64,000 nt of DNA from Promethearchaeota archaeon (GTDB taxonomy: Archaea > Asgardarchaeota > Hermodarchaeia > Hermodarchaeales > Hermodarchaeaceae): NCBI GenBank assembly GCA_048939625.1, contig JBHLPH010000002.1:1-64000 (forward strand), given 5' to 3'. Below are positions 5,710 through 34,854 of this stretch, piece after piece. A model generated the notes under the pieces. It was not told the origin of the DNA. It was given only the letters and a program-made list of their open reading frames with translations, and did no database searches. How positions within the stretch are numbered: position 1 is the stretch's first letter; the number at the start of each line of letters is the position of its first letter. The position numbers and the translations under genes are program-made.

Positions 5710-5785
5710 GGGCCCGTGGCCAAGTGGATACGGCGACAGGCTTCGGACCTGTAGATCCGGGGTTCAAATCCCTGCGGGCCCGCCA
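5710..5785 (+). tRNA. tRNA-Arg (anticodon TCG), intronless, CCA encoded
   Basis: Acceptor stem GGGCCCG/CGGGCCC, discriminator G plus CCA, anticodon arm ACAGG-CTTCGGA-CCTGT, T-loop TTCAAAT; 76 nt. Confidence 0.96.
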
Positions 5786-16781: not shown

Positions 16782-17798
16782 TTAGAGGGCTGTTCCACAA
16801 TTGGGACAAGTAACCCGATTTGAGGCAACCAGTTTGCCACAGATTCGGCAGGTGACCAGTCGGACTTGGACGGCAACAGCATCCTCAATTGCAGAGGGAG
16901 TCAAGATGATTTTGCTGTCTTCAACCTCGATTTGGAAGCGTCTTGGATGCCCCAATTCACGAAGTATGTTTTCAGGGAGGGGTAGTCGATCCTGGTTATC
17001 TAATTCAAGGACCCGGGTCCGTTCCAATTGTTTGAGATGGACACCCGCATCGTGGGTACCACTGATAATCCCGTCTCGGAGTTCAAGTGTTCGGCGAGCT
17101 TTAGAAGCAATGAGCTGGCTGTGTGTGACGATAAGGAATGCAGTACCGAATTGTTCGTTGAGGTCCTTGAAGAGGTCTAAGATTTCTTCTGCATTAATCA
17201 GGTCAAGATCACCAGTAGGCTCATCCGCAAGTACTAGAGAAGGATTGTTCATAAGCGCGGAAGCGATTGCTACTCGTTGGCGTTCGCCACCTGAGAGTTT
17301 GCCTGGAATAAAGTCCATGCGGTTACCAAGTCCGACGGCTTCAAGGAGTTCTGCAGACCGTTGGTGTCGCCACGATTTAGGAAATCCTGCAATTCGTGCG
17401 CTGAGTTCAACATTTTGTCGGGCAGTCATATGATGCAATAGGTTATCGACTTGGAAAACGAAGCCAATGAAGCCTCGTCGAGCCGCAGTTATAGTACGAT
17501 CATCTAATTTGGAAATATCTTGTTTGATATTAGACCAATAGACTTGGCCTGCACTGGGACGAAGTGTCCCGCCTAGAATATTCACGAAAGTAGTTTTTCC
17601 ACTACCCGAAGGGCCAACGACGGCGACGATTTCGCCTTGGAAGATTTGCAAGGATACACCACGAAGAGCGACCGTTTCGATTTCGCCAGTCTGGTAGATC
17701 TTATAGACATCATTGGCCATAAGAACCAGATCTTCAGGGACTTCTGCGAATTCTTCCTCTTTGACGAGACCGGTTGATAGTCCAGATATTTGATCCAT
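16782..17798 (-). CDS. MacB/LolD-type ABC ATPase with C-terminal AbrB-like and zinc-ribbon extension
   Basis: GPSGSGKT, LSGGERQR, LADEPTG; tail LDNQDRLPLP...IILTP and CRIC...CPNC. Confidence 0.9.
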   Translation of the reverse strand: MDQISGLSTGLVKEEEFAEVPEDLVLMANDVYKIYQTGEIETVALRGVSLQIFQGEIVAVVGPSGSGKTTFVNILGGTLRPSAGQVYWSNIKQDISKLDDRTITAARRGFIGFVFQVDNLLHHMTARQNVELSARIAGFPKSWRHQRSAELLEAVGLGNRMDFIPGKLSGGERQRVAIASALMNNPSLVLADEPTGDLDLINAEEILDLFKDLNEQFGTAFLIVTHSQLIASKARRTLELRDGIISGTHDAGVHLKQLERTRVLELDNQDRLPLPENILRELGHPRRFQIEVEDSKIILTPSAIEDAVAVQVRLVTCRICGKLVASNRVTCPNCGTAL

Positions 17799-17816: not shown

Positions 17817-20729
17817 TTACAGGTTGCGGAGCACCCGCCCAACGTTGATACGACCTGCACGGCGTGCAGGAATGTAGGTACCTATACTCATTCCGACGAT
17901 AACTATGCCAAGCACAATTACGAGGACAAGGAGCGGAACTGCAAGTGCGAAGGGTACTACAAAGGGGAAGGGAAAGAGGCTGAGTAGCACGTTCATTAGG
18001 AGCCAAGAGAATACAAAACCTAGAGCTAAGGCTACTAGAAATGAGGTTAGTATCAGCCCGATGAATTCTCCAAAGACAATCGAGATGATTTGTCTTCTTG
18101 TACTTCCGACAGCTCGCATGATAGCATATTCGGTTTGGCGTTCAGAGACTATTACACCGACGAAGAGCGTGAGTGCGATGATGCTGATGATTAGACAGGC
18201 AAGGAATCCAATAGAGAGAATGCTGACTACTCCTCGGTTGAAAAGGTATCCGTCAGGATAAGCTTCTTCAAGAGAGAAGGTTGCAGGTGAATAAACTCCA
18301 ATTGGAAATCCTAGTCCACGAATGTCAGATTCTACATTATCTATTTCGGAATCGCCATTGGTTAAGGTTAGGATTAGCTGGGTGTTAGTCATGTTAAGAC
18401 TAGTAAGATAACTGAGGTTCACAAAGGCGTAAGGTTGGGCAGTCTGAAATTGAAAGCCGTTTGTGGTATCTGGTGGACGTATAGGATCGTCAGGATCAAA
18501 ATACCCTAATCCCGGTGCACTTTGTCCAATACCAACAATGGTGAAGAGTGCGTCTTGAACCACACCCCCACCACCCTGATCATAGACGAGGATGCCCAAA
18601 TCTCTTCCCACCCAGCGTCCAAGTCGTTCAGCGATGGTGCGTGGTAGGATGACTCCGTTAGGTGTATCCCGGAGTCGGTTAAGAACGGTCACAGGATCTT
18701 CTCCAATAAAACTACTTGGATCCCAATATCCAATCTCGCCATAAGCGTCGGTATCTATTCCGTAGATGGCAAAAGAGATAGTGCCAATAAGCCCCCATGT
18801 ACGAACAAGGGGAGTTGCGGCTTCAACGCCAGAAACTTGTAGAATATCTTGAACTCTGGTGGTGGGTACCCAATTGCTTTCTACTCGGACATCTGCTCCA
18901 ATGAAGTATTCGATTTGCCGATTAGCGTTATCTTGCACGGTATAGGCTTCAACAACTGCGAATACAGTTACTGAGAAAGTGAGTGTTAGGATAAGAAGGA
19001 GGGGTACAATGCGTTCTCGTCGAGTGCGCATACTTTTCTCAAAAATGAAAGCCTTTTCTCCAAAGATTCCACGGAATCCCCGTGTGAGTCCTGCAACTCC
19101 TCGACGCACAATTCGAGATCCTGCATCACTTAGGAGTGTCCAAATCACAACTGCGTATATGAATTGGAGGATGGCAACCATCGGGGTTGCGGGGAAGAAA
19201 AGAACAGCGAAAACAAATGCTACGAGGAGAATAAGACAGATAGCAAAGTAGAATGATATTGCCAAGAGATCCGATTCCCCAGGAGGGTTGATACCGACCA
19301 TGGCTTGGTATATTTCAGTTCGTAAGAAGGATCGAACATAGATTAGAGTAAAGACAAGGGGAGGAATGATACAGGAGATAAGGGCGATAAGCCAGGTGAG
19401 GGGTTCCAGGCGTACAACGGAGAAGAACTCAAAAAAGATATTCATGTCAAATATCAGGAATCCTGTAGAAGCGGGTATGAGCGAGCCGACGAATAAGCTC
19501 AGAAACACCCCAAAAACCAGGGCTATGATGGCTATCACAATGAATTCGAGAATGAAAGCAGCATAAAGTTGGCGGAAGCTTGCCCCTCGAGCTCGGAGGA
19601 TAGCGACCTCTGAGCGGCGACCACTTAGGAAGATATTAGTGGCAAAAGTCGTGAGAAAGATTGATAGAATGATAACAGGGGCAACTAGCACTGCCATGGT
19701 TTGGCGTGAGCGATATGCGGCGATGTATTGTTCAAGATACAGAAGCTGACGTTCTCCCCCGATAATGATGTCACCTTGGAAAGCAGCTTCTGCTTGCGCC
19801 TTAACGTTACGGAGAATTTGTGGTACTCGGTCGATTCCGAATGCAAGAACTTCAGCAGAATTCAATCGAACGAGTAATCGGGGAAAGAGAGCATTGGTTG
19901 TAAGAACGTTCCGTTGCCCAGCATCCAATTGTTCATAATGGAAAATGAGCCCATCATTCCATCCGAAAACATTCTCCAACCCTGAAGCAGGATAATTAGT
20001 TCGACCAGAGCCTGAAAAAGTCCCATAAAGAACTGTGTCTTCGGGTCGGAGATTATAGATCCCGACCACTTGAATATTGGTTATATTGAATTGAGCGATA
20101 TCCCCTATCGTTGTGGGATCATCATACATAGAGGCAACTGCTATGTTGATATAACTGCCTTCTTGAATGGTCATGTTCAATATCTCTTCAGCATCTCTTA
20201 CTACTCGTGCGCTGACCAGGCACTGACCAGGTTGAACAGAAAAGCTGCCATTATAATCAAACTTGGATTGCACCTGAGTGAGAAATGAGGGGTCGACAAA
20301 AAATGTCTGAAAATCTTTGACATCATTCTCATACGGATATGGTAAATAGGGGTCACTAGCGGCTTTAGTGGTGCCATTGAGGATGCCCACTGATTGGTAT
20401 ATGACATAAGATGCCTCATATACGGATTGCGACATGAACCAGCTTTGAACTGAAAAAATCATCTCAGTATCAACGGGATATTCAAACCGTTGAACAATGT
20501 TGTATTGGAAAATGTTATCATCAAAATAATCATTAATGGATACTCGAGTGCCGGTGTCAGTCCAGACAAAAACTGAGGAAACAAGGCATACCCCGATAAC
20601 AATTCCTAGTAATAAGCTTAAGGAGCGAGTTTTGTGCTTTCGGATACTGTTACCAACATAACTGGCAATATAACTTCGACTTCCAGTTGCATTTAGGGAT
20701 CCCGCTCTAGTCTCCGCGGTCCCATTCAT
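17817..20729 (-). CDS. FtsX/MacB-type ABC permease, paralogue of 11126-14110
   Basis: 970 aa; shares SLSLL-GI-IGV-LV-SVFVWTDTG-RV, LE-AYPDGYLF, ER-TEYAIMRA and terminal LRNL with the other copy. Confidence 0.9.
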   Translation of the reverse strand: MNGTAETRAGSLNATGSRSYIASYVGNSIRKHKTRSLSLLLGIVIGVCLVSSVFVWTDTGTRVSINDYFDDNIFQYNIVQRFEYPVDTEMIFSVQSWFMSQSVYEASYVIYQSVGILNGTTKAASDPYLPYPYENDVKDFQTFFVDPSFLTQVQSKFDYNGSFSVQPGQCLVSARVVRDAEEILNMTIQEGSYINIAVASMYDDPTTIGDIAQFNITNIQVVGIYNLRPEDTVLYGTFSGSGRTNYPASGLENVFGWNDGLIFHYEQLDAGQRNVLTTNALFPRLLVRLNSAEVLAFGIDRVPQILRNVKAQAEAAFQGDIIIGGERQLLYLEQYIAAYRSRQTMAVLVAPVIILSIFLTTFATNIFLSGRRSEVAILRARGASFRQLYAAFILEFIVIAIIALVFGVFLSLFVGSLIPASTGFLIFDMNIFFEFFSVVRLEPLTWLIALISCIIPPLVFTLIYVRSFLRTEIYQAMVGINPPGESDLLAISFYFAICLILLVAFVFAVLFFPATPMVAILQFIYAVVIWTLLSDAGSRIVRRGVAGLTRGFRGIFGEKAFIFEKSMRTRRERIVPLLLILTLTFSVTVFAVVEAYTVQDNANRQIEYFIGADVRVESNWVPTTRVQDILQVSGVEAATPLVRTWGLIGTISFAIYGIDTDAYGEIGYWDPSSFIGEDPVTVLNRLRDTPNGVILPRTIAERLGRWVGRDLGILVYDQGGGGVVQDALFTIVGIGQSAPGLGYFDPDDPIRPPDTTNGFQFQTAQPYAFVNLSYLTSLNMTNTQLILTLTNGDSEIDNVESDIRGLGFPIGVYSPATFSLEEAYPDGYLFNRGVVSILSIGFLACLIISIIALTLFVGVIVSERQTEYAIMRAVGSTRRQIISIVFGEFIGLILTSFLVALALGFVFSWLLMNVLLSLFPFPFVVPFALAVPLLVLVIVLGIVIVGMSIGTYIPARRAGRINVGRVLRNL

Positions 20730-22644: not shown

Positions 22645-24081
22645 ATGCTCGACAAACTTCAGGCTGCAGTCTTGACCGGTGAGAAACTTGGCGCTGACTT
22701 TGTTGAAGCTCGTTTCGATGATTTCACCCTGCGTACACTTAGACGAATCAAAACCCGAAGTAACGATACTTGGAAAGATATCCTCTCAAAATCCCGAACG
22801 GGAATTGGAATAACCTGCTACTTCCATGGAACCCCCGGATATTCCTTCACTGCCAGTGAGGAAACAGAGGATATTGAAGAAACAGTCAAACGAGCCTTTC
22901 GGATGGCTAAAGCGGCATCCGCCGCGGCTTCCCTCAAACTAGAATTTGACCGAAGACCAGGAGTGAAAAGCAGACCTTCAGATACCCTCTCCGTGAAAAT
23001 CCATCCTGAAACCAAAGCACAGGAATATAAAATGGATCTTATCAACCGGATGGTAGATACTGCTTCTGTATACGGGAAAGAAATGGAAAACATCACAGGA
23101 GCCTACGGAGAACTATATGGACAAAAGATTTTCACAAATAGTGAGGCATCGAATATCGATTGGGAGTTTTTCGTCGTTGATTTGACCTGCAGAGTTACTT
23201 CGAAAACCAGTACTGGTGACATGGTATTTGCTTCAGAACGAAAAGCCGGCAGTCTAGGTCTTGAAGCCTATAACCAGAAAGGTTCCACACCTGAAGAGAT
23301 TGGTGAAACCGCAGGGACAATGGCGACAGAGCAGCTTAAGGCAAAAGCCTGTCCTGCAGGTAAGTTTCCGACTCTAATTGATAACGCTTTAGCTGGAGTA
23401 TTAGCACATGAGAGTTTTGGTCATCTTAGTGAAGCGGATTTCGTCACGATTGGTGTTTCTCCACTGGCAGGAAAAATTGGGACTACTCTCGGTACAGAAC
23501 ATGCCACCATAATTGATGGAGGAATTCCAGATATCGATAAAATCGGGGGATTGTGGCTTCCCTATGATGACCAAGGAATTCCAGCCAGCATGACCACTAT
23601 TCTTGATAAAGGTGTGTTGAAGCATTTTCTCCATAACCGGGGAACCGCCCACCAATTAGAACAAGAAGTCACAAGCAACTGCAGAGCAATTCATTTTGGT
23701 TTCATGCCTATTCCCCGAATGACAAACACCTTTTTTACTTCAGGCGATTTGACAGAAGAAGAAGCGCTTGAAGAATTGGGTACAGGTGTTTATGCGATTC
23801 AAACAGCTGGTGGACAAGTAGAAGGAGACGGGAGTTTTCTTTTCAAAGCGAATCGAGGGTATTGGGTGGAAAATGGACAGATCCAACATCCCATTCGAGA
23901 GGTAGCGCTTTCAGGTAATATTCTTCAACTCCTTCAACGGATTGTTGGAGCTACTCGCGACCTTGACTTGTGGGGAACATATTTCGGCGGATGCGGAAAA
24001 AGCGGACAACATCCATTACCCACAGGTCTTGGTGGACCAAAACTGCTCATAGAGGATGTGACCTTCGGAGGAAAAGCGTAG
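22645..24081 (+). CDS. tldD: TldD-family metalloprotease
   Basis: HESFGH zinc motif, YDDQG, PRMTNT, GGQV, GCGK near the C-terminus. Confidence 0.92.
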   Translation: MLDKLQAAVLTGEKLGADFVEARFDDFTLRTLRRIKTRSNDTWKDILSKSRTGIGITCYFHGTPGYSFTASEETEDIEETVKRAFRMAKAASAAASLKLEFDRRPGVKSRPSDTLSVKIHPETKAQEYKMDLINRMVDTASVYGKEMENITGAYGELYGQKIFTNSEASNIDWEFFVVDLTCRVTSKTSTGDMVFASERKAGSLGLEAYNQKGSTPEEIGETAGTMATEQLKAKACPAGKFPTLIDNALAGVLAHESFGHLSEADFVTIGVSPLAGKIGTTLGTEHATIIDGGIPDIDKIGGLWLPYDDQGIPASMTTILDKGVLKHFLHNRGTAHQLEQEVTSNCRAIHFGFMPIPRMTNTFFTSGDLTEEEALEELGTGVYAIQTAGGQVEGDGSFLFKANRGYWVENGQIQHPIREVALSGNILQLLQRIVGATRDLDLWGTYFGGCGKSGQHPLPTGLGGPKLLIEDVTFGGKA

Positions 24082-24099
24082 GCCCGGAGATGTAATCTG

Positions 24100-25491
24100 A
24101 TGGAGTATGAACAGATAAAGAACAACCTACTCGCTGAGATAGATTCTGGTTTGAAATTTGCCCAATCTCAAGATAGCGCAGCCAATTTTGAACTTTTTTT
24201 GTATTACCGTAGTGAATCTAATGTAGAAATCAAACAAGGCGTTGTTGAAGCGACAGATGGAATAGTAGCGGGAAATGCAGTCCGGGTGGCTAAAGATCAG
24301 CGTGTTAGTTTCTCTTCTTCGAGTGGAATCACTCCGTCACAGATTCAAAGGAGCGTTAATGCCGCTTTAGCGAGTTTGAAAGCAACCTCAGAAAGGGACA
24401 CCCGCTTCAAAGGTTTCTGTGAACCCAAACCACCAGGTAAAGAAGGGAAATTCTCTCATGAAATTTTAGAACTATCCACCGATGATTTAGTAAAGATGTC
24501 ACTTGAACTCATCGGAGACATGACTAGTGTAAATGGGCGTGTTCTTGCGGCTGTTGCGTGTGAAAGGACATGGGGTGGATTCGCCATTGGTAACACTTTG
24601 GGAGTACAACAGGCATCTTGCTCCGCGTATAATGCTTGCAGTGCATATGCAATGGCAATTGACGGAGATCAGCGAAAGACAGCGTCTGAAGAGTTAGTTA
24701 CCCGTGAAAAAGCCCTTGATGTTACCGGAATTGGAAAAAAAGCAGCAACGAAAGCGATTAACTTACTTGGAACCAAAAAATTCAATCGAACGACAAATCT
24801 ACCTACGCTTTGGGTACCTTGGGCAGCATCCAGCTATATTCTCTCGAGTCTTCAACAAGCAGCAAAAGGACAAGCTGTAGTTGAAGGATTATCTCCTCTA
24901 AGTGATAGACTTGGCGAAAAAATTGCCTACCCCAGTTTCACCCTTATTGATGATGGACAGGATCCCTTAGGCATCTCAACTGAAGCCATTGATGCAGAGG
25001 GACACCCTCAAGGAAAAACGAGCATCATCGAGCAAGGTGTTTTGAAAGGATATCTCTTCGACTCCTATTATGGTCGAATTGCTGGAAAAGACTCAACGGG
25101 TAATTGTGCTCGTTCCGGTGGACCATTTGGGTCGCGATTACCCTATGAAGAAGCCCCCAGCATCTTTAGCAAAAACTTAGAAGTTACTCCTGGGAATAAA
25201 ACCCTTGAAGAGCTCATAGCATCAATTGATGGCCAAGGAATATTGATCACAGATATTCCTATTGGAATATTCCATAGCTCAGTTGCAACTGGTGAATTCT
25301 CAGTGGTAGCGAATTCTGTATTTCTCATTGAAGATGGTGAAAAGAAACACCCCCTCGAACCGGTGTCAATTGCAGGGAATTTCTATCAAGGGCTAAAACA
25401 ACTTCGAGGTGTCGGCAATGATATTGAAATTACCTCATTATTTGTCACAACACCCAGCTTACTAATTGATGGATTTTCCATCACTAGTTAA
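24100..25491 (+). CDS. PmbA/TldE-family protein
   Basis: DAEG, G-L-GYLFD, STGN, TGEFSV and SIAGN motifs; no HExxxH; follows tldD. Confidence 0.9.
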   Translation: MEYEQIKNNLLAEIDSGLKFAQSQDSAANFELFLYYRSESNVEIKQGVVEATDGIVAGNAVRVAKDQRVSFSSSSGITPSQIQRSVNAALASLKATSERDTRFKGFCEPKPPGKEGKFSHEILELSTDDLVKMSLELIGDMTSVNGRVLAAVACERTWGGFAIGNTLGVQQASCSAYNACSAYAMAIDGDQRKTASEELVTREKALDVTGIGKKAATKAINLLGTKKFNRTTNLPTLWVPWAASSYILSSLQQAAKGQAVVEGLSPLSDRLGEKIAYPSFTLIDDGQDPLGISTEAIDAEGHPQGKTSIIEQGVLKGYLFDSYYGRIAGKDSTGNCARSGGPFGSRLPYEEAPSIFSKNLEVTPGNKTLEELIASIDGQGILITDIPIGIFHSSVATGEFSVVANSVFLIEDGEKKHPLEPVSIAGNFYQGLKQLRGVGNDIEITSLFVTTPSLLIDGFSITS

Positions 25492-25592: not shown

Positions 25593-26636
25593 ATGCCCGA
25601 AACACTCACATCCATCATATCTGAGGTAAAAGACTATTGGGGATTACGCCGTAAACAACCCATTGGCCAACTAGTAAAAATTCTGCGGAAAGAAGGCTTC
25701 AAATGCCCACATGTTCTTTCATCAATTGGCGAAGATTCGGCTGCTATTGATTTGGGAGGAAATAACCTTATTTTACTTTCAACTGATGCGGTCATCCCCG
25801 AATTAGCTGAATCGAAACCATATGCCGCAGGGTATTCGTCGATCTTAGTCAATGTCAACGATATCTATGCGGCTGGAGGCCGACCGATTGTTGCTATGGT
25901 GAATATTGCCTTCACCAAGATGGAAGCGGGAGTCAAGTTTATGGAGGGAATCTGTACAGCGGGTCAGAAATTCAAAGTTGAGGTCGTTCGCGGTCACACT
26001 ACCCCCTTCGCTCCTGTTAACGGAGTTAGTGCCTCGATTTGCGGAACAGTGGCCCGTGAGTCATACATTAGTGCGGGTGGAGCACAGACCGGTGATGAGT
26101 TAATTTTAGCTGTAGATTTAAACGGACGGATTTCCCCGAATTATGAATTTGGATGGGATACAACATCTATTAAGACCTCAGAAGAGGTTCTGAGACGCTA
26201 TGAGGCGATGCGAGTTCTTGCTGAAAGACGAATGCTTTCAGCGTCTAAGGATTTGAGTAATGGTGGAATCATCGGAACTACACTGTTAATGCTTGAATAT
26301 GGGCAAAAGGGAGCATTGATTGACCTGGCAACAATCCCAATTCCAAATGGGCTTGATCTAATTACTTGGCTGAAAATGTATATTTCAACAGGCTTTGTGG
26401 TCTCTACTATCCCAGAGAAATCCAAGGAGGTGATAGCCACTTTTAGAAAACATGGATTGACAGCTGTACGGATTGGAACAGTAGATGCATCACAAAAACT
26501 AACGGTCGAGTATAAAGGCGAAGCTAATACGATTTTTGATTTCGCTCAAGAGTCAATTGTAGCGCCACCACCGCCCCCTCAATTGAATCGGATAGCTCCT
26601 CGCAAATCAAGGGAAAAACAAGGAGAGAGACCCTAA
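25593..26636 (+). CDS. AIR synthase-related (PurM/ThiL/HypE superfamily, sll0787/marker-2-like) protein
   Basis: GEDSAAI, VNVNDIYAAGGRP, RGHT, ASKDLSNGGIIGT. Confidence 0.85.
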   Translation: MPETLTSIISEVKDYWGLRRKQPIGQLVKILRKEGFKCPHVLSSIGEDSAAIDLGGNNLILLSTDAVIPELAESKPYAAGYSSILVNVNDIYAAGGRPIVAMVNIAFTKMEAGVKFMEGICTAGQKFKVEVVRGHTTPFAPVNGVSASICGTVARESYISAGGAQTGDELILAVDLNGRISPNYEFGWDTTSIKTSEEVLRRYEAMRVLAERRMLSASKDLSNGGIIGTTLLMLEYGQKGALIDLATIPIPNGLDLITWLKMYISTGFVVSTIPEKSKEVIATFRKHGLTAVRIGTVDASQKLTVEYKGEANTIFDFAQESIVAPPPPPQLNRIAPRKSREKQGERP

Positions 26637-26681: not shown

Positions 26682-27293
26682 GTGAGTAATATGGCAACAA
26701 AGAAGTCTAATGAAAAAGATTACACCGATGAAGTGGCAAAAGCAACAAAACGCATCCAAAAGATTGTCAAAGACATGAATAGGGAGCTTTTAGAACAGCG
26801 TGAATTCAACCTAACCTCCCAGACCCGGTTTGAAGAATTAACTCAAGAGTTACAAACGAAAGACGCAACAATCGAACGCCTCGAACGGACTATCGCAGAG
26901 TTAAAAGAATCGGCTGATCAAACAACCGATCTTATGGTAAAAAATCGTGCGATGGAATCGGAGCTTAATGCGATTAAGAGTCAATTAGAAAAAATGTCTG
27001 ATACATATAAAGAGCTTGTCGCTGAACACGAAGCGTCGATTCCAGTCCAAGAGTTATTAGCTCTTTACATCGCTTTGCTTGAAGATGTCTTTTATGCCCA
27101 ACCACATGCCAAGACCCTGTTTTTACTTCATGGACGCAAGAAGGAAATGACGCGTGAAGAAATTGTAAAAACTGCAGGACATGAAGCCACAGCCATTAGA
27201 AAAGCTTTGGGTGATCTCTCTCGGGCTAATCTAATCGATTATAATGTGGAAACAGGGAAAGCCCAATTGAAAAAACGCCTTTACCCCACTTAG
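26682..27293 (+). CDS. Hypothetical protein: N-terminal coiled coil plus C-terminal winged helix
   Basis: Heptad-rich residues ~15-115; C-terminal TLFLLH...MTREEIVKTAG...AIRKALGDLSRANLIDY wHTH pattern. Confidence 0.7.
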   Translation: MSNMATKKSNEKDYTDEVAKATKRIQKIVKDMNRELLEQREFNLTSQTRFEELTQELQTKDATIERLERTIAELKESADQTTDLMVKNRAMESELNAIKSQLEKMSDTYKELVAEHEASIPVQELLALYIALLEDVFYAQPHAKTLFLLHGRKKEMTREEIVKTAGHEATAIRKALGDLSRANLIDYNVETGKAQLKKRLYPT

Positions 27294-28300
27294 ACCTTCA
27301 TATCTGTTAGTAACTGGTTGAAGCGCGGTAAATTATGGAGAGTCGATGTAAGGGCGCTGATGTAGCGGCTAAGCTCAGCTTGAATAATTCGTTCTATATC
27401 AGACAAAGTTTTACTATCTGCGGCTTTATCAACCAGTTCGCGAGCACTACGATGAATGACGCCGACTACTCGTTTTTCGACATCAGCTGGTCCCCAATCA
27501 AATGAACGGAGGTTTCGTTTCGCTTCACTTAGACTTGATTTGGGTGAATTATCTTTCAATGCGTTTTCGAGCTGATCATAAAATTCCCGGCTTGCTTCGG
27601 CAATTTTATTTTGCTCTCGACTCGTTAATTCCGTCCCCAATGTTCCTCGTCGAGATAACTCTTGCAGTAATCCCGCACAGGGGGCCTCAGCTAGGAAGCG
27701 TCGAATAAGCGTGTAAAAGACCTGGCTGGCCGTAGTGGTGACTTCTTTGATTATTTCACGAGGTTCGCTATATCGGAATAATTCACGACAGGATTCAAAC
27801 CAAAAATTCGGTAAGAGTAAATGGCTACGACTGGAATATTTGTCTAGCAATTGCTGTAAAGGAGGGAGCTTCTTATCAGGATCGTAAATGGAGAGTCTCC
27901 GTTGGAAGGGTTTCCCTGTCAGTCCTGCCAGATCCTCACTCGCTTCGGCAATCAGTTGCTGTGTAGCTAGTAGTGGTTCCTTGATTTTAGTTTTTGAAAT
28001 CTTTTCTTTCCGAGATTTCGAATAAGAGTCTAGAGCTGTTTCAATTCGTTCCAGATGGGTAAGAATGACCTTTATCGTGTCATCAACAAAAGAAGAGCCT
28101 GAGGAAGCGTGGTTATTTTTTGAATCAACGAGTGCTTGTTTTACGGATTTGCGAACGGTTCGAACACCATTGGCTAATTGGTTAATTTGTTGAGGATCTA
28201 AATCCCCTTCGGCTTCAATCGTGATAAGAGCATGGATTAGTGTTGAGTTGACGGTTGTAAGTATGAGGATGCGTTCCAGCAATTCTTCTGCTGTAATCAA
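27290..28300 (-). CDS. Hypothetical all-helical protein, third gene of the tubulin-like operon
   Basis: 336-aa ORF, TTG start after a purine-rich SD-like run, 26 bp downstream of the tubulin-like gene. Confidence 0.75.
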   Translation of the reverse strand: MITAEELLERILILTTVNSTLIHALITIEAEGDLDPQQINQLANGVRTVRKSVKQALVDSKNNHASSGSSFVDDTIKVILTHLERIETALDSYSKSRKEKISKTKIKEPLLATQQLIAEASEDLAGLTGKPFQRRLSIYDPDKKLPPLQQLLDKYSSRSHLLLPNFWFESCRELFRYSEPREIIKEVTTTASQVFYTLIRRFLAEAPCAGLLQELSRRGTLGTELTSREQNKIAEASREFYDQLENALKDNSPKSSLSEAKRNLRSFDWGPADVEKRVVGVIHRSARELVDKAADSKTLSDIERIIQAELSRYISALTSTLHNLPRFNQLLTDMKV

Positions 28301-28326: not shown

Positions 28327-29676
28327 CTATTTCATTTCGAGATTGAAGAGTTCGGCGACATCGCGAATTGCAGCTCGGAGGACTTCTTCACTAACCCCTT
28401 TGGACTTTTTGAACCAACCTCGGCGCAAAGGAGAGGGGCCTGAATGTAAATCGACAAGTTCAGTGGCAGAATTGACAAGGTCTTCAATTTCGGGAATCTG
28501 GGGAAGCCCTAAGAGGAGGAGTAAGTCTGAAGGATGAGCTTCGTCTTCATAGGAAACAAAACAGGGAGTAATTGCTGCACCCTTTGCCGTGTATGGACGG
28601 AGAGCCTGTTTGATGTGCGGGTCATATTCAGCCCGGGCGTATTCTTTGGTACCAGAAAATGTGTAGTATGTTGATGAGGCTCCGGGTTCTGAACCAATTT
28701 CTGCGAAGCTGCAATGTTCGACTGCATACTTTACCATTGTTTTTAGCTGGGTGGGAATATTGCCAGCAGATGGGATGAGGCTAACATCAGTGTATAAGCA
28801 TGGGACAACGATTGGATCTAATTTCCGGGCATAATCAGCAATATCCGTTGTTGGAAAGACTTCTTTTCCAGGTTCGACTACACCGGGACTCAGCATATGC
28901 TCTACAAATCTTAGAGCAAGTGGGTTTACAAGTTCAACAAAAGCTGACTCTTGGGCCTTAGAAACGTCATTAGCACCATCTACGGTTGATGGAACCATCC
29001 CTTCGACATCAGTTACCTTTGCAACATCTATTTGCAATTGTTTTTGCAAAAAGTCAGCCACTTCACCCTCTCTCCAAGCTAGGATACGACGAAGCATCGC
29101 ACGATTACTAAGTAAACAAACAAGATCGGCTCCACGGTCCTCTAATTGCCCTCGAAGAAGCTTCGAAAGGGACCACATCGTGTTGAGGGCTTCCGAGGTC
29201 TGATCCTTGAAAGGCAGTACCGTAAAGACATAGACAAAGATGCGGCGTCCCTCTTCTTCTTGAAACCGTTCCTTTAGTATCTCGATTAGTGCTGGGGCAC
29301 CACCGCACCCTGTTCCACCACCAGATGAGGTGAAAATGACAAAGCCAGAAACTCCTTCGAAGCCTAATTGAGTCAGCTGACCCATTATGACCTCTTTGAA
29401 GTCATGAACATAAGTATAGCCATCTGTAAAGTTACCCCCACAGCCAATATCTGAAGCGCCATAGAGGAGGGTATTCTCTTTAGGAATGTCATATTTCTGG
29501 CGAAGCTTTGTGATGTCTGAGCGATCGGTGTTCATACACAGGTACCCACGGATTCGTGGAGGTAGCATGCGTTCACGAGCTTGTTTGAGGTAAGCACCGA
29601 CGAGGTTGCTTCCACATTCTCCAATTCCGATGGCAAATACTTCCGCAACACGCGGTCCTTCATCTGATGCTTCCAT
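28327..29676 (-). CDS. Divergent tubulin/FtsZ-superfamily GTPase (CetZ-like)
   Basis: IGIGECGSN (T1), NTD (T2), GCGGN (T3), SSGGGTGCGG (T4 signature), VLPF (T5), LSN (T6), TDIAD (T7), C-terminal LLLGLPQIPEIEDL; GGTGA SD. Confidence 0.9.
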   Translation of the reverse strand: MEASDEGPRVAEVFAIGIGECGSNLVGAYLKQARERMLPPRIRGYLCMNTDRSDITKLRQKYDIPKENTLLYGASDIGCGGNFTDGYTYVHDFKEVIMGQLTQLGFEGVSGFVIFTSSGGGTGCGGAPALIEILKERFQEEEGRRIFVYVFTVLPFKDQTSEALNTMWSLSKLLRGQLEDRGADLVCLLSNRAMLRRILAWREGEVADFLQKQLQIDVAKVTDVEGMVPSTVDGANDVSKAQESAFVELVNPLALRFVEHMLSPGVVEPGKEVFPTTDIADYARKLDPIVVPCLYTDVSLIPSAGNIPTQLKTMVKYAVEHCSFAEIGSEPGASSTYYTFSGTKEYARAEYDPHIKQALRPYTAKGAAITPCFVSYEDEAHPSDLLLLLGLPQIPEIEDLVNSATELVDLHSGPSPLRRGWFKKSKGVSEEVLRAAIRDVAELFNLEMK

Positions 29677-29687
29677 GTTGTTTCACC

Positions 29688-32384
29688 CTATTTCTTCTTG
29701 GCTTTTTCTTTCTGTTCAACCATTGCAGCTCCCAGTTCTCGAGCAGCCCACGTGAGGTAATTTGCGGTATCCTCACGAGAATAGGTCTCTCGAATTCGTT
29801 TTTCAATTTCGTTCAATTGGCGATTTCGTTCAGCTTTAGGCGCTGCGGGATTAAAGTCTGCAAGAAATACGCGAAGCGCCTTGTGCCATTCATCAAGTTC
29901 TTTAATTTTCTCCAGCCATTGTTGTTCTAGGCTTCGAATTGTGGTGAAGATATCTATGGCTTCAGGAAGAGAATTAACGGTTTCTAGTTTTCCACGTAAA
30001 TTCTGTAAAGTGTCGATTGGAAAGATAATTTTGCTAAACTCAGTTGGTCGAGATGCATAAACACGTTTAATTGTGGAATAATATTCAGTCGTATTCTCAA
30101 GTAATTGTTCAAATGCGGATTCAGTCTTTTGTTCCATATTTCGAAGGATGTCAAGAACACTATTTTGGGCTTCAACTAAAGCCATACAGATTTCCAGTAC
30201 CGTGTTTACTTGTTCCGCCTCCAAAGCATCAGGAACCCGAGCAAGGAGATCCTTGAGTTTAACAACAATCTCTGCCTGACCATGTCTTTCAAGTAGATCA
30301 GTGACCGAATTGAGATTACGCCAAACCTCATTGGCTTTGGAACGGATGTCTTTCAGTAATTTTGCGTCTGTTAATAATTCCCGAAGTTCGTCAAAACGAT
30401 CCGGTAGTTCTTCAATATTGGCTGGCAATTTATCCTGTAATTTCATTGATTGCTTGACATAGGTGTCGGTTTTAATTCCAAGAGTGGCGGAGACGCTAGT
30501 TAATTCAGAGAAGGCTTTGATTTGTTCATTAAGAGTCTGGTTGAAATACCCTACGATGCGCTTCTCAAAGAGTTCGACTATGTGATGAGCTTTACGAATT
30601 GCTTCCTCATAGGTTTCGCTCGCAGGAACGATCTGGGTGAGCTCTTGAATGGCAGCCTGAACTTCTGAGGGGATGGTTAAGCCCATCCCAAGGAGTTTGG
30701 AAACCGCAAGCCGCAGCTTGAGGTCGAGTCGATATTTAAGATTCTCAATGGCATCTTGCGCCTTATAGAGAGCATCTCCTTGTGCTTCCCGGGCAACTCC
30801 TTCAATCTCTTCGAAGCTGGTGCTATTCCTAATTTGTGCAATTGAATTTTCTAAAAATTCTTCCATAGTTTTGAAAGATTCACGATAGGTTGGCTTGATA
30901 ACTTGAATTTCAGCTAAGAGGGCGTTGAGTTCACGCTCCCAAGCTTTTCGGAATAAATCGATTCGATTTTCGACATGCTTATGAAGGCGGGCGTACGCCT
31001 CAACTAGTTCGGGGAAACTAATATCTGAACTTCGAACTGGCGCTGGGGCAGCACCCATTGTGGTTTTATCAAGGACGGTGCTTGCCGTTTCAGAAATCCG
31101 TGTAAGTAACGCTTCCTGCGTTCGAATCTCTGCAAGCAGTTTCCCATGTTCTTCAATAATCTGTGCGGCAACATCTGAGTAGACCTTGACAAAGGCTTTG
31201 AGATCGCCTTTTTGCAACTTCTTGGTTTGAGTTTTGACAAATTTGTCCAGATCATCCGTATTTGCCAAGACTTTGCGTTTTACTGCTCGCATTAAATCAT
31301 CTAAAATCCGCGTGGATTCAGCCCGAATTGCTGTTTCAACATTAGTTTTGTAAGCCTGTAATCGCTCAAAGCTAGCAATGAGAGCTGCTAAATCCGCTTC
31401 TTTAGGAACTTCAGGAGGTGCAGGCGGAAGAAATGTCGCTTCTTGGGAGATATTCGCGCTAGCTAGTATACGGTTTAAGTTATGGCCGAATTCTAAAATT
31501 TGACTTCTAATTTCACTCGAAGCTTTGAGAACCTGTCCATCATATTGCTGAACCAATCCCAGAAGTGTAGTGAGGTTAGTTTCTCCTTTGAGTTGTTTCT
31601 TCAAGCCTTCTAATGACGTGGAAATCGCCATGGGCACCTTTAGGTTTAGACTCCGAGCACTTTCTAACAGCGATATGGAAGATTCAATACTAGCCTGTAG
31701 TTTTGCACGTAAGGTATCGACGACCTCTCCTCGCCGGCTAGTGAGGTATTCATGCTCTTTCCGGAGAGTCTTCCGAATCTCGAAAAGCTCCGGGATTGTG
31801 TTTACTCCAACTGATTCACGTTCAGCACTAATTGATACATCGCTGGTGTCAATACCAACAAAACGATCATAGGTTTTAATCAATGCCCGATTTTGTTCAA
31901 GCATATCATTTGTTTGTTTTTGCAAAGCTTCACGAAGTTGTTTAGAAAGGCCTTCTAGATTTGATACAAACCGGGAGAGAACGGGCAACACAACTGCATA
32001 GCCCCCTTGTGTTGAGGGAAAGGAGAGGCTATTGAGGTCGCGCCCTAGTTTGATATCAAAAGTCATGATTGTAGCTTTCAATTCTTCAAGCTCAGTCATG
32101 TAAGATTTCAGTAATTCGATATGAAGACGTAATGAACGTGATAAATCCTCATCAACTTTAGGAATGCTCTGATCGATTTGTTTTACAAGTCGGCGTTTCT
32201 TGGGACTAAGAGACCAACTTGTTTTTGCGTCTCTATCAAAGCCTTCAAGGGCTACAAGCTCCCGCCCAGTATCCTCTAACGAGGTCTCGATTTCTGACGG
32301 AAGACCGCCCATTATTGTTTGGCATTTAGCGCTAACATCTTTGAGCATAGAGTAGTACTTGCGAAGCTCTGCTAATGTCGTCAA
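29688..32384 (-). CDS. Large all-helical/coiled-coil hypothetical protein, first gene of the tubulin-like operon
   Basis: 898-aa L/E/K/R/A-rich ORF with no TM segment or nucleotide-binding motif; ends 11 bp before the tubulin-like start; TTG start. Confidence 0.8.
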   Translation of the reverse strand: MTTLAELRKYYSMLKDVSAKCQTIMGGLPSEIETSLEDTGRELVALEGFDRDAKTSWSLSPKKRRLVKQIDQSIPKVDEDLSRSLRLHIELLKSYMTELEELKATIMTFDIKLGRDLNSLSFPSTQGGYAVVLPVLSRFVSNLEGLSKQLREALQKQTNDMLEQNRALIKTYDRFVGIDTSDVSISAERESVGVNTIPELFEIRKTLRKEHEYLTSRRGEVVDTLRAKLQASIESSISLLESARSLNLKVPMAISTSLEGLKKQLKGETNLTTLLGLVQQYDGQVLKASSEIRSQILEFGHNLNRILASANISQEATFLPPAPPEVPKEADLAALIASFERLQAYKTNVETAIRAESTRILDDLMRAVKRKVLANTDDLDKFVKTQTKKLQKGDLKAFVKVYSDVAAQIIEEHGKLLAEIRTQEALLTRISETASTVLDKTTMGAAPAPVRSSDISFPELVEAYARLHKHVENRIDLFRKAWERELNALLAEIQVIKPTYRESFKTMEEFLENSIAQIRNSTSFEEIEGVAREAQGDALYKAQDAIENLKYRLDLKLRLAVSKLLGMGLTIPSEVQAAIQELTQIVPASETYEEAIRKAHHIVELFEKRIVGYFNQTLNEQIKAFSELTSVSATLGIKTDTYVKQSMKLQDKLPANIEELPDRFDELRELLTDAKLLKDIRSKANEVWRNLNSVTDLLERHGQAEIVVKLKDLLARVPDALEAEQVNTVLEICMALVEAQNSVLDILRNMEQKTESAFEQLLENTTEYYSTIKRVYASRPTEFSKIIFPIDTLQNLRGKLETVNSLPEAIDIFTTIRSLEQQWLEKIKELDEWHKALRVFLADFNPAAPKAERNRQLNEIEKRIRETYSREDTANYLTWAARELGAAMVEQKEKAKKK

Positions 32385-32562: not shown

Positions 32563-33498
32563 ATGGCTGCTACGGAGAGACATGAAAAAGTCCGTGAAAA
32601 GCTATTAGAGGCTGGTAAAATTGCCTCCCAAGCCCTTGCATTCACGTGTGAACTCGTGAAAGTGGGATCTTCGTTACTCACAATCGCTGAGGCAGGCGAG
32701 AAGAAAATTCTGGAATTAGGAGGAAAACCAGCTTTTCCAATTAATATCTCAGTCAATCATCATGCTGCCCACTACACGCCAGGTTTGGAGGACACGACTG
32801 AGGTACCTACACAGTCTCTTGTGAAAATTGATTTAGGAGCACATGTCGACGGGTATGTGGCGGATAACGCTCGAACCGTGCTCGTGGGAGATGATGAAGC
32901 GCTCCAACAGCTTATTGTTGGGGCTGAAGCCGGATTACAAGCCGCTTTGGAAACGGCTCGATCGGGAATACGGATATGGCACTTATCGCAAGCCATCTCC
33001 AAAGCGATGCGCAAGGCAAACACCCGACCCATAGAGAACTTAACAGGCCATAGTATAGAACAATTTAATCTACATGCAGGGATTTCAGTACCCGCCGTAA
33101 CCCATTCAATTAGTCGAGTAGCGTCCCCAAGATTAGAGGAACACATGGTTGTCGCAATTGAACCTTTTTCTACTTATAGCCGAAACCCCTACGTTGAGAA
33201 TCTAGAACCCGGGCACATTTACGGTTTTACACCAAGGCGCAACCCCAAAGATGCTGAGTTGCGGATGCTTTTCAGTAAGATGAAGATTGAATTTGTACAA
33301 CTCCCCTTTGCCTCACGGTGGATGACAAAATTCGTAGAACCAAGTCAGATCACTCAAACACTTAACAAACTTAGAGACCAAGGGTGCATTCACAATTATG
33401 CTCTCTTAGGGCTTCGGGATGAAAATTCCATTGCTCAAGCAGAGCATACAATTATTGTAGAAAAGAAGGGATGTACAGTAACTACTACACGCCCTTAA
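32563..33498 (+). CDS. map: Methionine aminopeptidase type II
   Basis: PAFP, AAHYTP, KIDLGAHVDGYVAD, TGH, LHAG, AIEPF, AQAEHT. Confidence 0.93.
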   Translation: MAATERHEKVREKLLEAGKIASQALAFTCELVKVGSSLLTIAEAGEKKILELGGKPAFPINISVNHHAAHYTPGLEDTTEVPTQSLVKIDLGAHVDGYVADNARTVLVGDDEALQQLIVGAEAGLQAALETARSGIRIWHLSQAISKAMRKANTRPIENLTGHSIEQFNLHAGISVPAVTHSISRVASPRLEEHMVVAIEPFSTYSRNPYVENLEPGHIYGFTPRRNPKDAELRMLFSKMKIEFVQLPFASRWMTKFVEPSQITQTLNKLRDQGCIHNYALLGLRDENSIAQAEHTIIVEKKGCTVTTTRP

Positions 33499-33516: not shown

Positions 33517-34854
33517 ATGGAGTATCAGAGCATTTTACAGAAACTCATTTCATTACCTACAGTCAATGATCCTGCGAAGGAGGTGCGTCCCACTCGAGAG
33601 TGCCCCGAATTCCTACATGAAAAGCTCTCTGAGATTGGCTTCAATTCGATAATTCTTGAAAAGAACGGCTTCTACTCTGTTTTAGGAATCTATGGAAAAG
33701 GTCGTCCCGTTACGTTACTTATTTCTCATTTTGATGTGGTGCCCATTGGTCCCGGATGGACGACTGACCCTTTTGAATTAACCGTGCGCGACAGATTTGG
33801 CTATGGACGAGGAACCGCAGATGATAAGGGAAATACGACTGCACTCCTCCTCTCAGCTGAGGAGATTCCTCATCAGAAAATTAAGGGTACCGTTGCTTTT
33901 GCGATGACGGGCGATGAGGAAATTGGTGGCACCAATGGAGCTACTGCAGTTCGTTCAAAACTCGAAAAACAGCACTTGTTTCCGAATTATTTGATTACTG
34001 CAGATGGGGTGGGTATGCAGATTGTTACTCGCCGTCGGAACACTGTCTCGGTCTCAGTTAGTGTTCCTCAACACCCTTTACAGTATGATGGAGCTGTTGA
34101 AACACACCGATTCACTACGGATTACGTTGGCCGAGCATCCCGTCATTCAGCTTACTTCATACCCGGAGTGGACCGACATGCCCTCCTTGCGGCATCGAAT
34201 TTTCTACTTCAAAATCCACACATGAGAGTCACCTCGACAGCGGGCAGTTATGTCAAAAGTAATGTTGTCCCAGACTGGTTTGAGCTCGAAGTTATCAACC
34301 CACAAGCTTCCGCCAACCAAGCAAACTATAAGATTGATCAAAATCTTACTACGCTTCTTCAAGCGTTACTTCCAATTTCACGAGTGCAGTTTACTACGAA
34401 TCTCAGTGATTATGGAATTACATTTTGTCCTAATTTGCTGTTTGAACGCGAAAATCGCTGGGAAGTTTATTTTGATGGACGTGCAATGACCAACGATGTC
34501 CAGGCAGTAAGGAAAGCATTGAACGCAGTGTTAGCAGAGAAGCTCGCTGGCATTGATTATCAAATGAAAGTTCGATTAGGAAAAGCTTTCATGAATACAG
34601 CCACTAATTCCCAATTAGTACGAGTTGCACAAAAGGTCGCACAGGAATTGGGTCAAAAGACAAGCCCAATTGAATTAGGGGGGGCTAGTGATACGCGGCA
34701 TTTTACAGACCGGCCCATTCAAGCTATCGACTTTGGTCCTATTGGGTATGGGATCCATGGTTCCGATGAACATGTTCTCCTTGAATCCATTCCTCAAACC
34801 GCAAAATTCTATACTTCTGTTGTTCGGGCCCTCCATTCATCTTTCAAACCTTAG
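33517..34854 (+). CDS. M20-family metallopeptidase (DapE/ArgE-like)
   Basis: SHFDVVP, GRGTADDKG, DEEIGG, GGASD, IHGSDE. Confidence 0.9.
   Translation: MEYQSILQKLISLPTVNDPAKEVRPTRECPEFLHEKLSEIGFNSIILEKNGFYSVLGIYGKGRPVTLLISHFDVVPIGPGWTTDPFELTVRDRFGYGRGTADDKGNTTALLLSAEEIPHQKIKGTVAFAMTGDEEIGGTNGATAVRSKLEKQHLFPNYLITADGVGMQIVTRRRNTVSVSVSVPQHPLQYDGAVETHRFTTDYVGRASRHSAYFIPGVDRHALLAASNFLLQNPHMRVTSTAGSYVKSNVVPDWFELEVINPQASANQANYKIDQNLTTLLQALLPISRVQFTTNLSDYGITFCPNLLFERENRWEVYFDGRAMTNDVQAVRKALNAVLAEKLAGIDYQMKVRLGKAFMNTATNSQLVRVAQKVAQELGQKTSPIELGGASDTRHFTDRPIQAIDFGPIGYGIHGSDEHVLLESIPQTAKFYTSVVRALHSSFKP

Follow-up and report, generated by a model that had tools for sequence, protein, structure and literature searches.

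The closest described relatives of the protein reported here are the CetZ proteins of Euryarchaeota, represented by CetZ1 and CetZ2 of Haloferax volcanii (PDB 4b46 and 4b45; Pfam PF00091 and PF21011); the tubulins, among them OdinTubulin (7evb), AtubA/B (9f6t), BtubA/B (5o09), and the eukaryotic proteins; and FtsZ, including archaeal FtsZ1 and FtsZ2 (NCBIfam TIGR00065). A CetZ-like group restricted to Asgard archaea was named Asg.Tub by Santana-Molina, del Saz-Navarro, and Devos (2023, Front Microbiol 13:1100249; PMC9871819). Here we describe a member of this group, P0001, encoded on a stretch of 64,000 nucleotides from a Promethearchaeota archaeon (Hermodarchaeaceae; GenBank assembly GCA_048939625.1, contig JBHLPH010000002.1, positions 1 to 64,000), to which we refer as the window. 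P0001 is an open reading frame (ORF) of 449 amino acids (aa) on the minus strand at positions 28327-29676. We think it probable that P0001 is an Asg.Tub protein, neither CetZ, FtsZ, nor bona fide tubulin, and that it forms GTP-dependent filaments together with two helical partners, named BIG and SML here, whose genes stand on either side of it. This reading is carried by observations on motifs, fold, clade, distribution, and synteny. Coordinates of the gene, its parts, and its two neighbors are collected in Table 1.

Table 1. The Asg.Tub operon and the features of P0001, in window positions
Feature	Position	Strand	Basis or remark
Asg.Tub, tubulin-superfamily GTPase P0001, 449 aa	28327..29676	-	ORF; Pfam PF00091; AlphaFold2 model; 100/99 clade
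N-terminal Rossmann-type GTPase domain, residues 12-195, loops T1-T6	29092..29643	-	Pfam match; genome scan
T1 loop GIGECGSN, residues 17-24	29605..29628	-	G19, E20, G22, and N24 invariant
T3 loop GCGGN, residues 78-82	29431..29445	-	G78, G80, and G81 invariant
T4 signature GGGTGCG, residues 119-125	29302..29322	-	invariant glycines
Acidic insertion between H6 and H7, family specific, residues 198-245	28942..29085	-	length, charge, low model confidence (pLDDT)
T7 loop and start of H8, PTTDIADY, residues 275-282, with D278 and D281	28831..28854	-	
C-terminal helices 395-411, 416-426, and 430-443 (H11/H11'/H12-like)	28348..28494	-	DSSP; pLDDT 85-95
BIG, upstream partner P0122, 898 aa, all-helical	29688..32384	-	no Pfam family
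SML, downstream partner P0123, 336 aa, helical	27290..28300	-	no Pfam family above cutoff

A sequence-only reading of the window had placed the gene at the correct coordinates, to which we add the strand; the plus-strand reading of the same interval is broken by many stops. The Tubulin/FtsZ GTPase family PF00091 matched residues 12-195 of P0001 with an E value of 3.2e-18 (67.2 bits against a cutoff of 33), and all of the motifs named in that earlier reading were found in the translation. Conservation across the family was measured on an alignment of 117 members. Fourteen positions were invariant in 117/117 sequences, namely, G19, E20, G22, N24, G78, G80, G81, G120, G123, G125, S190, N191, D278, and D281, and C21, C124, W421, F422, S425, K426, G427, L443, and F444 were conserved in at least 90%. 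Because they are invariant across 117 family members, the motifs are not due to chance. The catalytic aspartates had been described as retained, and both D278 and D281 of T7 are invariant; in the superfamily alignment they fall in the columns of D-F-A-D in FtsZ, D-x-x-D/E in CetZ, and D-x-x-E in tubulin. Two of the named motifs need qualification. The T3 loop does read GCGGN, but its Cys79 is peculiar to the subclade of P0001 and is replaced by Val in other members. The C-terminal motif likened to that of CetZ (LLLLLGLPQIPEIEDL, residues 385-400) is present as well, but its likeness to CetZ is not statistically significant (domain 2 score, -4.0).

Beyond the shared GTPase domain, P0001 answered to none of the models that define the known families. 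CetZ_C (PF21011), FtsZ_C, and Tubulin_C (PF03953) had no match in P0001 at E values up to 1, and the NCBIfam FtsZ equivalog TIGR00065 reached 24.9 bits against a cutoff of 295.2. The closest PDB sequence was H. volcanii CetZ1 (4b46; E value, 3.6e-9), through the N-terminal domain only, followed by gamma-tubulins (1.6e-5) and AtubA (∼1e-5). Membership in canonical CetZ, FtsZ, or tubulin was rejected in each case on the defining Pfam or NCBIfam model together with the placement in the tree described below.

A word-indexed search returned 140 homologues that were 49 to 94% identical to P0001. Those with names were all from Asgard archaea, with Thor-, Heimdall/Hod-, Hermod-, and 'Asgardarchaeia'-type labels and one record labeled 'Loki', whose 90% cluster also contains a Thorarchaeota record; the 90% cluster of P0001 itself carries mostly Hermodarchaeota labels. 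Nearly all of the homologues were annotated as 'hypothetical' and some as 'Tubulin-like protein CetZ'. An exhaustive HMMER pass covering 1.84 billion cluster representatives found only 2 full-length Asg.Tub clusters and then one remote relative, P0127 (E value, 5e-28), below which all matches had E values of 4e-9 or weaker and were confined to the GTPase domain. When 40 of these non-family neighbors were scanned with Pfam, 20 were CetZ_C positive (4e-9 to 2e-54), and the rest were TubZ-like, tubulin, or unclassified. Across Asgard classes, the identity of Asg.Tub is 50 to 65%, compared with 17 to 29% between lineages for the flanking BIG and SML; judged from the sequences, Asg.Tub is under strong purifying selection.

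The supplementary trees of the 2023 study put four sequences in Asg.Tub, OLS26264.1, PWI48967.1, KXH77455.1, and OLS30664.1 (PMC9871819). The first of these, our P0086, is also present in the Asg.Tub-C alignment file supplied with that study; it and P0001 are 51% identical across 98% of the length, and both belong to the 100/99 clade. Since OLS26264.1 shares its clade, P0001 is a new member of the named family. The neighbor genes of Asg.Tub were described in that paper as unknown and rich in coiled coils, in unrelated contexts (PMC9871819), and here, too, the named homologues are Asgard only and the flanking genes are helical and lack a Pfam family. In the literature that we searched, OLS26264.1 and the name Asg.Tub were mentioned in no other context. 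The 'CetZ-related Asgard archaeal clade' that serves as an outgroup in a recent preprint (bioRxiv 10.64898/2026.02.15.705738) is probably the same group.

The three genes lie in the order BIG, Asg.Tub, SML, all in the same direction. The gap between BIG and Asg.Tub is 11 nucleotides and contains GGTGA before the ATG of Asg.Tub, and the 26-nucleotide gap between Asg.Tub and SML contains GGAGAG before the TTG start of SML; both are Shine-Dalgarno-like. A scan for bacterial-type promoters and terminators, which is ill suited to archaea, gave nothing above shuffled expectation. Synteny was followed with iterated profile hidden Markov model searches through 24 loci from nine Asgard genome families. 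BIG stands directly upstream of Asg.Tub in all 24 loci (one BIG copy being truncated), SML stands directly downstream in 22, and the full three-gene order is kept in 22/24. The orthologues measure ∼900 to 1,170 aa for BIG and ∼340 aa for SML, and pairwise comparisons of orthologues gave E values of 1e-126 and 5e-27 for BIG and 2e-40 and 2e-15 for SML. An operon with a helical partner is also found in BtubAB-BtubC.

Neither partner could be tied to a described family. No family scored above the Pfam cutoff for BIG or SML, profile searches against PDB sequences returned only helical noise of the ApoA-I type (E values of 8e-4 or weaker), and in the ESM Atlas features the two had either their own cluster or nothing. 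The idea that BIG is a GCP/GRIP-like gamma-tubulin-complex protein found no sequence support in Pfam or in the PDB profile search and was set aside. In the AlphaFold2 model of SML, a C-terminal helical domain (residues 140-336) has a predicted local distance difference test score (pLDDT) of >90, and an N-terminal three-helix bundle is poorly defined. A fold search with SML (VIA-wide) gave generic three-helix-bundle matches to the low-confidence N terminus, with Z scores up to 9.4, and barely covered domain 140-336. Residues D140, P164, P207, L211, G270, E275, and R277 of SML are invariant. A complex of Asg.Tub and SML was predicted with a score of 0.56, against 0.00 for the best of 3 controls, and was graded as weak support; the runs agreed in at least 91% of contacts, with a partner pLDDT of at least 79. 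The mark applied was reached by 58/80 solved complexes and 2/110 mismatched pairs, counts that are rough, our own alignments having been used.

Two further loci touch on this arrangement. Many genomes of lineage f10 hold a second, more divergent Asg.Tub paralogue with its own BIG (∼1,140 aa) and without SML (L041:5992-10752 and L042:2558-7329, in genomes G067 and G072). A co-directional 311-aa gene upstream of BIG at the second f10 locus was considered as a displaced SML and proved unrelated (hhalign probability, 0.06%). The remote relative P0127 is encoded on a Logan contig (L050:8001-10149; SRR7811641), with GEGGGN as its T1 and AGGTGCG as its T4. No BIG lies upstream of it, and the gene downstream, which encodes 262 aa and overlaps it, has a faint F-x-W motif that matches the F-D-W-G motif of SML with an hhalign probability of 24%.

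An AlphaFold2 model of P0001 built on the 117-sequence alignment had a pLDDT of 84.8 and a predicted template modeling score of 0.86, with low confidence only in residues 1-9 and ∼200-240. As modeled, P0001 has the two-domain fold of the tubulin superfamily, with a Rossmann-type GTPase domain, H7, and an activation domain. The structure superposed best on CetZ2 (4b45; Z, 35.1; root mean square deviation [rmsd], 2.8; 327 aligned; model residues 11-413) and on OdinTubulin (7evb; Z, 35.0; rmsd, 2.8; 362 aligned; model residues 9-447) with VIA-align. With Foldseek and VIA-align, BtubB, AtubB, and eukaryotic tubulins followed at Z scores of 33 to 34.6, superposed to residue 446-447, and FtsZ was not among the best matches. 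The superpositions on CetZ, at Z scores of 34.6 to 35.1, stop at model residues 409-420.

This difference in reach concerns the C terminus, where residues 395-443 are modeled as three helices in a block with a pLDDT of 85 to 95. Because the tubulin superpositions extend to 446-447, we equate helices 395-411, 416-426, and 430-443 with H11, H11', and H12 of tubulin, and by the model Asg.Tub bears a tubulin-type H11-H12 helix pair on its surface. The sequence-only reading had seen in this segment (RRGWFKKSKG...LRAAIRDVAELF, residues 418-444, ending ...DVAELF) a basic and aromatic, then amphipathic, tail that might bind membrane. That proposal did not hold up. The segment is modeled as packed, conserved helices that superpose on H11-H12 of tubulin, and the W-F-x-(R/K)-S-K-G element lies, in the model, within the packed surface helix pair. 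Since residues 395-443 are confidently helical and just 2 to 25 residues remain after F444 across the family, variable and mildly acidic, there is no free amphipathic tail, and membrane binding by such a tail was ruled out as the best reading.

An unusual insertion after T6 had also been pointed out from the sequence, and it is both genuine and specific to the family, at 38 to 57 residues, compared with 4 to 12 in most CetZ, FtsZ, and tubulin proteins. We counted its length between the columns of R197 and F246 in the 83-sequence superfamily alignment, where the spacing was 38 to 51 in Asg.Tub, 4 to 10 in CetZ (with outliers of 17 and 21), 9 in Asgard FtsZ, and 5 to 12 in tubulins; the remote relative P0127 has 17 residues at this position. 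In 116 members, the segment corresponding to residues 198-245 was 38 to 57 residues long, with a median net charge of -5. Its flanks are conserved (D217 and E243 in at least 90%), and its center is hypervariable. It was modeled as two short helices with a pLDDT of ∼50. The sequence-only reading had seen in it a possible docking site for partners.

The nucleotide-binding loops form a mosaic. Asg.Tub resembles CetZ and FtsZ in its short H1-S2 loop and in the NTD that comes after it, and the block of ∼17 to 24 residues that tubulins carry before S2 is absent. In T1, Asg.Tub has GECGSN, compared with GQAGGK in CetZ, GGGGNN in FtsZ, and GQ(A/G)GNQ in tubulin. The T3 loop lacks the three-residue insert of CetZ and FtsZ and continues F..GY like tubulin. 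In T4, Cys124 replaces the Ser or Thr of CetZ, FtsZ, and tubulin. T5 has the LPF of FtsZ and not the PS of tubulins; T6 has S-N instead of the D-N of all three; and T7 reads T-D-x-A-D.

We inferred a phylogeny from 83 sequences and 393 columns under LG+C20+F+G4 with posterior mean site frequencies and a careful search. The sequences comprised 22 Asg.Tub, Pfam-labeled non-family HMMER matches, 8 Asgard FtsZ, 12 Asgard Tubulin_C-positive tubulins, and one further Tubulin_C-positive protein; identified artubulins, Halo.Tub, bacterial FtsZ, and the diversity of eukaryotic tubulins were outside the sample, and long branches were present. Asg.Tub came out as a clade (100/99) with a stem length of 0.59. 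Its sister group consisted of the uncharacterized metagenomic proteins P0127, P0137, and P0138 (96/85), and it lay outside the CetZ_C-positive (98/96), FtsZ (100/100), and tubulin (100/100) clades. The earlier proposal of a distinct clade of the tubulin superfamily is thus borne out, and in the maximum-likelihood tree the family did not nest by short branches within CetZ or FtsZ, the outcome named beforehand as grounds for giving the proposal up. Deeper in the tree, Asg.Tub may belong to either the CetZ or the tubulin side. The node joining Asg.Tub to the tubulin side had 57/40 support. In approximately unbiased (AU) tests, forcing Asg.Tub and its sisters together with CetZ cost 39.3 log-likelihood units (P = 0.033, which is marginal, the group having been named after the first tree was seen), and forcing them together with tubulins cost 13.7 (P = 0.155), which is not a rejection. 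The longest branch in the tree (3.6) belongs to a very divergent 381-aa tubulin-superfamily ORF (L015; G015:C1:2686998-2687531) with a borderline PF00091 score of 32.5 bits, from a single-contig genome of a lineage without Asg.Tub.

This placement bears on the possibility that P0001 is a divergent member of CetZ, orthologous to the cell-shape protein of Euryarchaeota and alike in its role in rod formation and motility. CetZ1 is its best PDB sequence match, CetZ2 ranks first among the structures by a very small margin, CetZ_C is present in about half of the scanned non-family sequences closest to it, and the 'Tubulin-like protein CetZ' annotations point the same way; Santana-Molina et al. also judged the group closer to CetZ than to tubulin, after finding its position unstable between the two (PMC9871819). 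The two proteins share a short H1-S2 loop, an N-T-(D/A) motif, and D-x-x-(D/E) in T7, and they are loosely similar in the turn that leads into H11, G-x-P-x-(I/V)-P-x-(I/L). However, P0001 has no CetZ_C match and stands outside the 98/96 clade, and its forced grouping with CetZ is disfavored, if marginally. Its T1 is GECG rather than GQAG, its T4 has Cys rather than Ser, its H6-H7 segment is longer by ∼40 residues, and two additional, H12-like helices are present at its C terminus. Asg.Tub belongs to Asgard archaea rather than Euryarchaeota and has a different, family-specific gene context. We therefore regard an orthologue of CetZ as unlikely.

The distribution of the family was taken from a profile scan of 400 Asgard genomes, 90 of them of high quality. 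Asg.Tub was present in 126/400 genomes and in 32/90 of high quality. It was near-universal in genome families f1 (14/18), f5 (4/4), f10 (21/22), and f28 (5/5) and absent from f7 (0/31) and f20 (0/135). Tubulin_C-positive tubulins occurred in 8/400 genomes, all in families f9, f19, f26, and f27, and none of the 33 genomes of those four families had an Asg.Tub match. That the two do not co-occur hints at functional replacement, though related genomes are not independent. In the genome of the window (2.3 Mb, 88% complete), the only PF00091 matches were one FtsZ, on contig 28, and P0001, and a scan for Tubulin_C (PF03953) found nothing. At 88% completeness, a second FtsZ may lie in the unassembled part.

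The absence of Asg.Tub from every Asgard family with Tubulin_C-positive tubulins would also suit a stem-lineage tubulin, an intermediate toward eukaryotic tubulin that builds tubes of several protofilaments and uses H11-H12 as a docking surface. Superpositions on tubulins cover residues 9-447, the C-terminal helices included, at Z scores of 33 to 35, and the H11-H12-like helices of the model and the spacing after T3 in the alignment, with F..GY and no CetZ/FtsZ insert, are tubulin-like. The unconstrained tree put the family on the tubulin side, and the AU test did not reject the constraint that joins them. Against these points, the joining node has 57/40 support in a tree with long branches that lacks artubulins and the diversity of eukaryotic tubulins, and the affiliation with tubulin had been argued against from indels (PMC9871819). 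Asg.Tub has neither Tubulin_C nor the long H1-S2 loop and is 13 to 21% identical to tubulins; its T5 is LPF, like that of FtsZ, instead of PS, and its T7 is D-x-x-D instead of D-x-x-(E/K). One gene encodes it, in place of an A/B pair. On balance, we find a stem-lineage tubulin improbable.

We also considered whether Asg.Tub works in cell division, in place of one of the two archaeal FtsZ paralogues or in addition to it. A single FtsZ accompanies Asg.Tub in the genome of the window and in G075, which is 99% complete, and FtsZ shares with Asg.Tub the GTPase domain, the PF of T5, and the D-x-A-D of T7. However, the genome of the window is 88% complete, the carriers G312 and G307 have two FtsZ in addition to Asg.Tub, and the non-carriers G002 and G015 likewise have a single canonical FtsZ. 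P0001 falls far below the FtsZ equivalog cutoff (24.9 versus 295), has no FtsZ_C and no long C-terminal linker or peptide, and lies in a clade separate from FtsZ, which makes a role of this kind very unlikely.

We return to P0001 as a distinct Asg.Tub protein that probably forms filaments with its partners. In the mechanism that we propose, GTP would be bound by loops T1 to T6 of one subunit, whose active site would be completed by D278 and D281 of the subunit next to it in a head-to-tail protofilament. Polymerization would thereby switch on GTP hydrolysis, as it does in FtsZ, CetZ, and tubulin. BIG and SML are probably dedicated partners of the filament, acting as assembly regulators, bundlers, or anchors. 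The candidate surfaces for their binding are the H11-H12-like helices and the acidic H6-H7 loop, which are family specific, conserved, and exposed.

Several points weigh against this picture. GTPase activity, polymerization, and binding to the two partners are inferred, the first two from homology, and no biochemical or structural work on any Asg.Tub member was found in the searched literature. In structures of the tubulin family, the H6-H7 site is close to the longitudinal interface, and the insertion at this site could alter or even block canonical protofilament contacts. Nucleotide handling could also differ, because the Ser-Asn of T6, the Glu of T1, and the Cys of T4 depart from the usual residues. 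Binding of the partners is weakly suggested, by synteny and by a predicted complex of weak grade with no reported interface. Scores of 0.60 or less were obtained for just 7/80 solved complexes and for both of the mismatched pairs that passed. No fusion of Asg.Tub with either partner was found among proteins of 787 to 2,245 aa, which is weak evidence. Finally, the two loci at which SML is not downstream are those of the second, paralogous copy in lineage f10, where a convergent 740-aa gene takes its place.

The insertion near the longitudinal face, the pairing with BIG in 24/24 loci, which loosely recalls gamma-tubulin and its helical gamma-tubulin complex proteins (GCPs), and the rank of gamma-tubulins directly after CetZ1 among the PDB matches (E value, 1.6e-5) might suggest a non-polymerizing GTPase, a nucleator, cap, or chaperone-like subunit that would act only in complex with the two helical partners, but the invariant acidic pair of T7 makes sense mainly for activation from subunit to subunit, the PDB profile searches gave no GCP or other meaningful relative of BIG or SML, and these genomes hold no filament besides FtsZ to be nucleated, so that we consider it highly improbable.

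Within the preferred reading of a filament-forming Asg.Tub with helical partners, a more specific history is conceivable, and we offer it tentatively, as more doubtful than not. The system may combine a CetZ-like GTPase core with an acquired tubulin-type H11-H12 and recruit helical binding proteins through these helices or through the H6-H7 loop. It would then be an intermediate between FtsZ or CetZ and the decorated filaments of tubulin, and it might fill, in Thor-, Hermod-, Baldr-, and Heimdall-type Asgard archaea, the niche that true tubulins occupy in the Loki and Odin types.

Elsewhere in the window, three genes a few kb at most from the operon encode an AIR-synthase-related protein (25593-26636), an M24 peptidase (32563-33498), and an M20 peptidase (33517-34854), and a tandem TldD/PmbA metallopeptidase pair lies at 22645-25491 on the plus strand; this context of TldD/PmbA, AIR-synthase, M24, and M20 genes is not conserved at other Asg.Tub loci. 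Two very large FtsX/MacB-type permeases (994 and 970 aa) and an ATP-binding cassette ATPase that ends in a zinc ribbon are encoded on the minus strand at 11126-14110, 16782-17798, and 17817-20729. The sole RNA gene detected in the window is a tRNA-Arg(TCG) at 5710-5785 on the plus strand. A 670-aa ORF without a Pfam family occupies 59555-61567 on the minus strand and has an N-terminal half rich in His, Thr, and Leu. Its region is the only one of odd composition in the window, with a GC content of 0.55 compared with ∼0.45 and a skew of +0.46 at 60 to 62 kb, and the ORF may be a mobile or foreign gene.

Relative to the 2023 description of Asg.Tub, the fixed three-gene operon, the distribution over 126/400 genomes, the H6-H7 insertion, and the H11-H12-like helices are new here. 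The interest of these results lies in the family and its operon, for which P0001 serves as a clean example, complete in length and in its operon, and it adds no further biology of its own. Asg.Tub is far commoner in Asgard archaea (126/400 genomes) than true tubulins are (8/400), although it is the latter that have been studied. It joins a front that is CetZ- and FtsZ-like to a predicted tubulin-like C-terminal surface and to two co-inherited partners, and this combination opens the question of whether filament-associated proteins and an H11-H12 docking surface are older than true tubulin.

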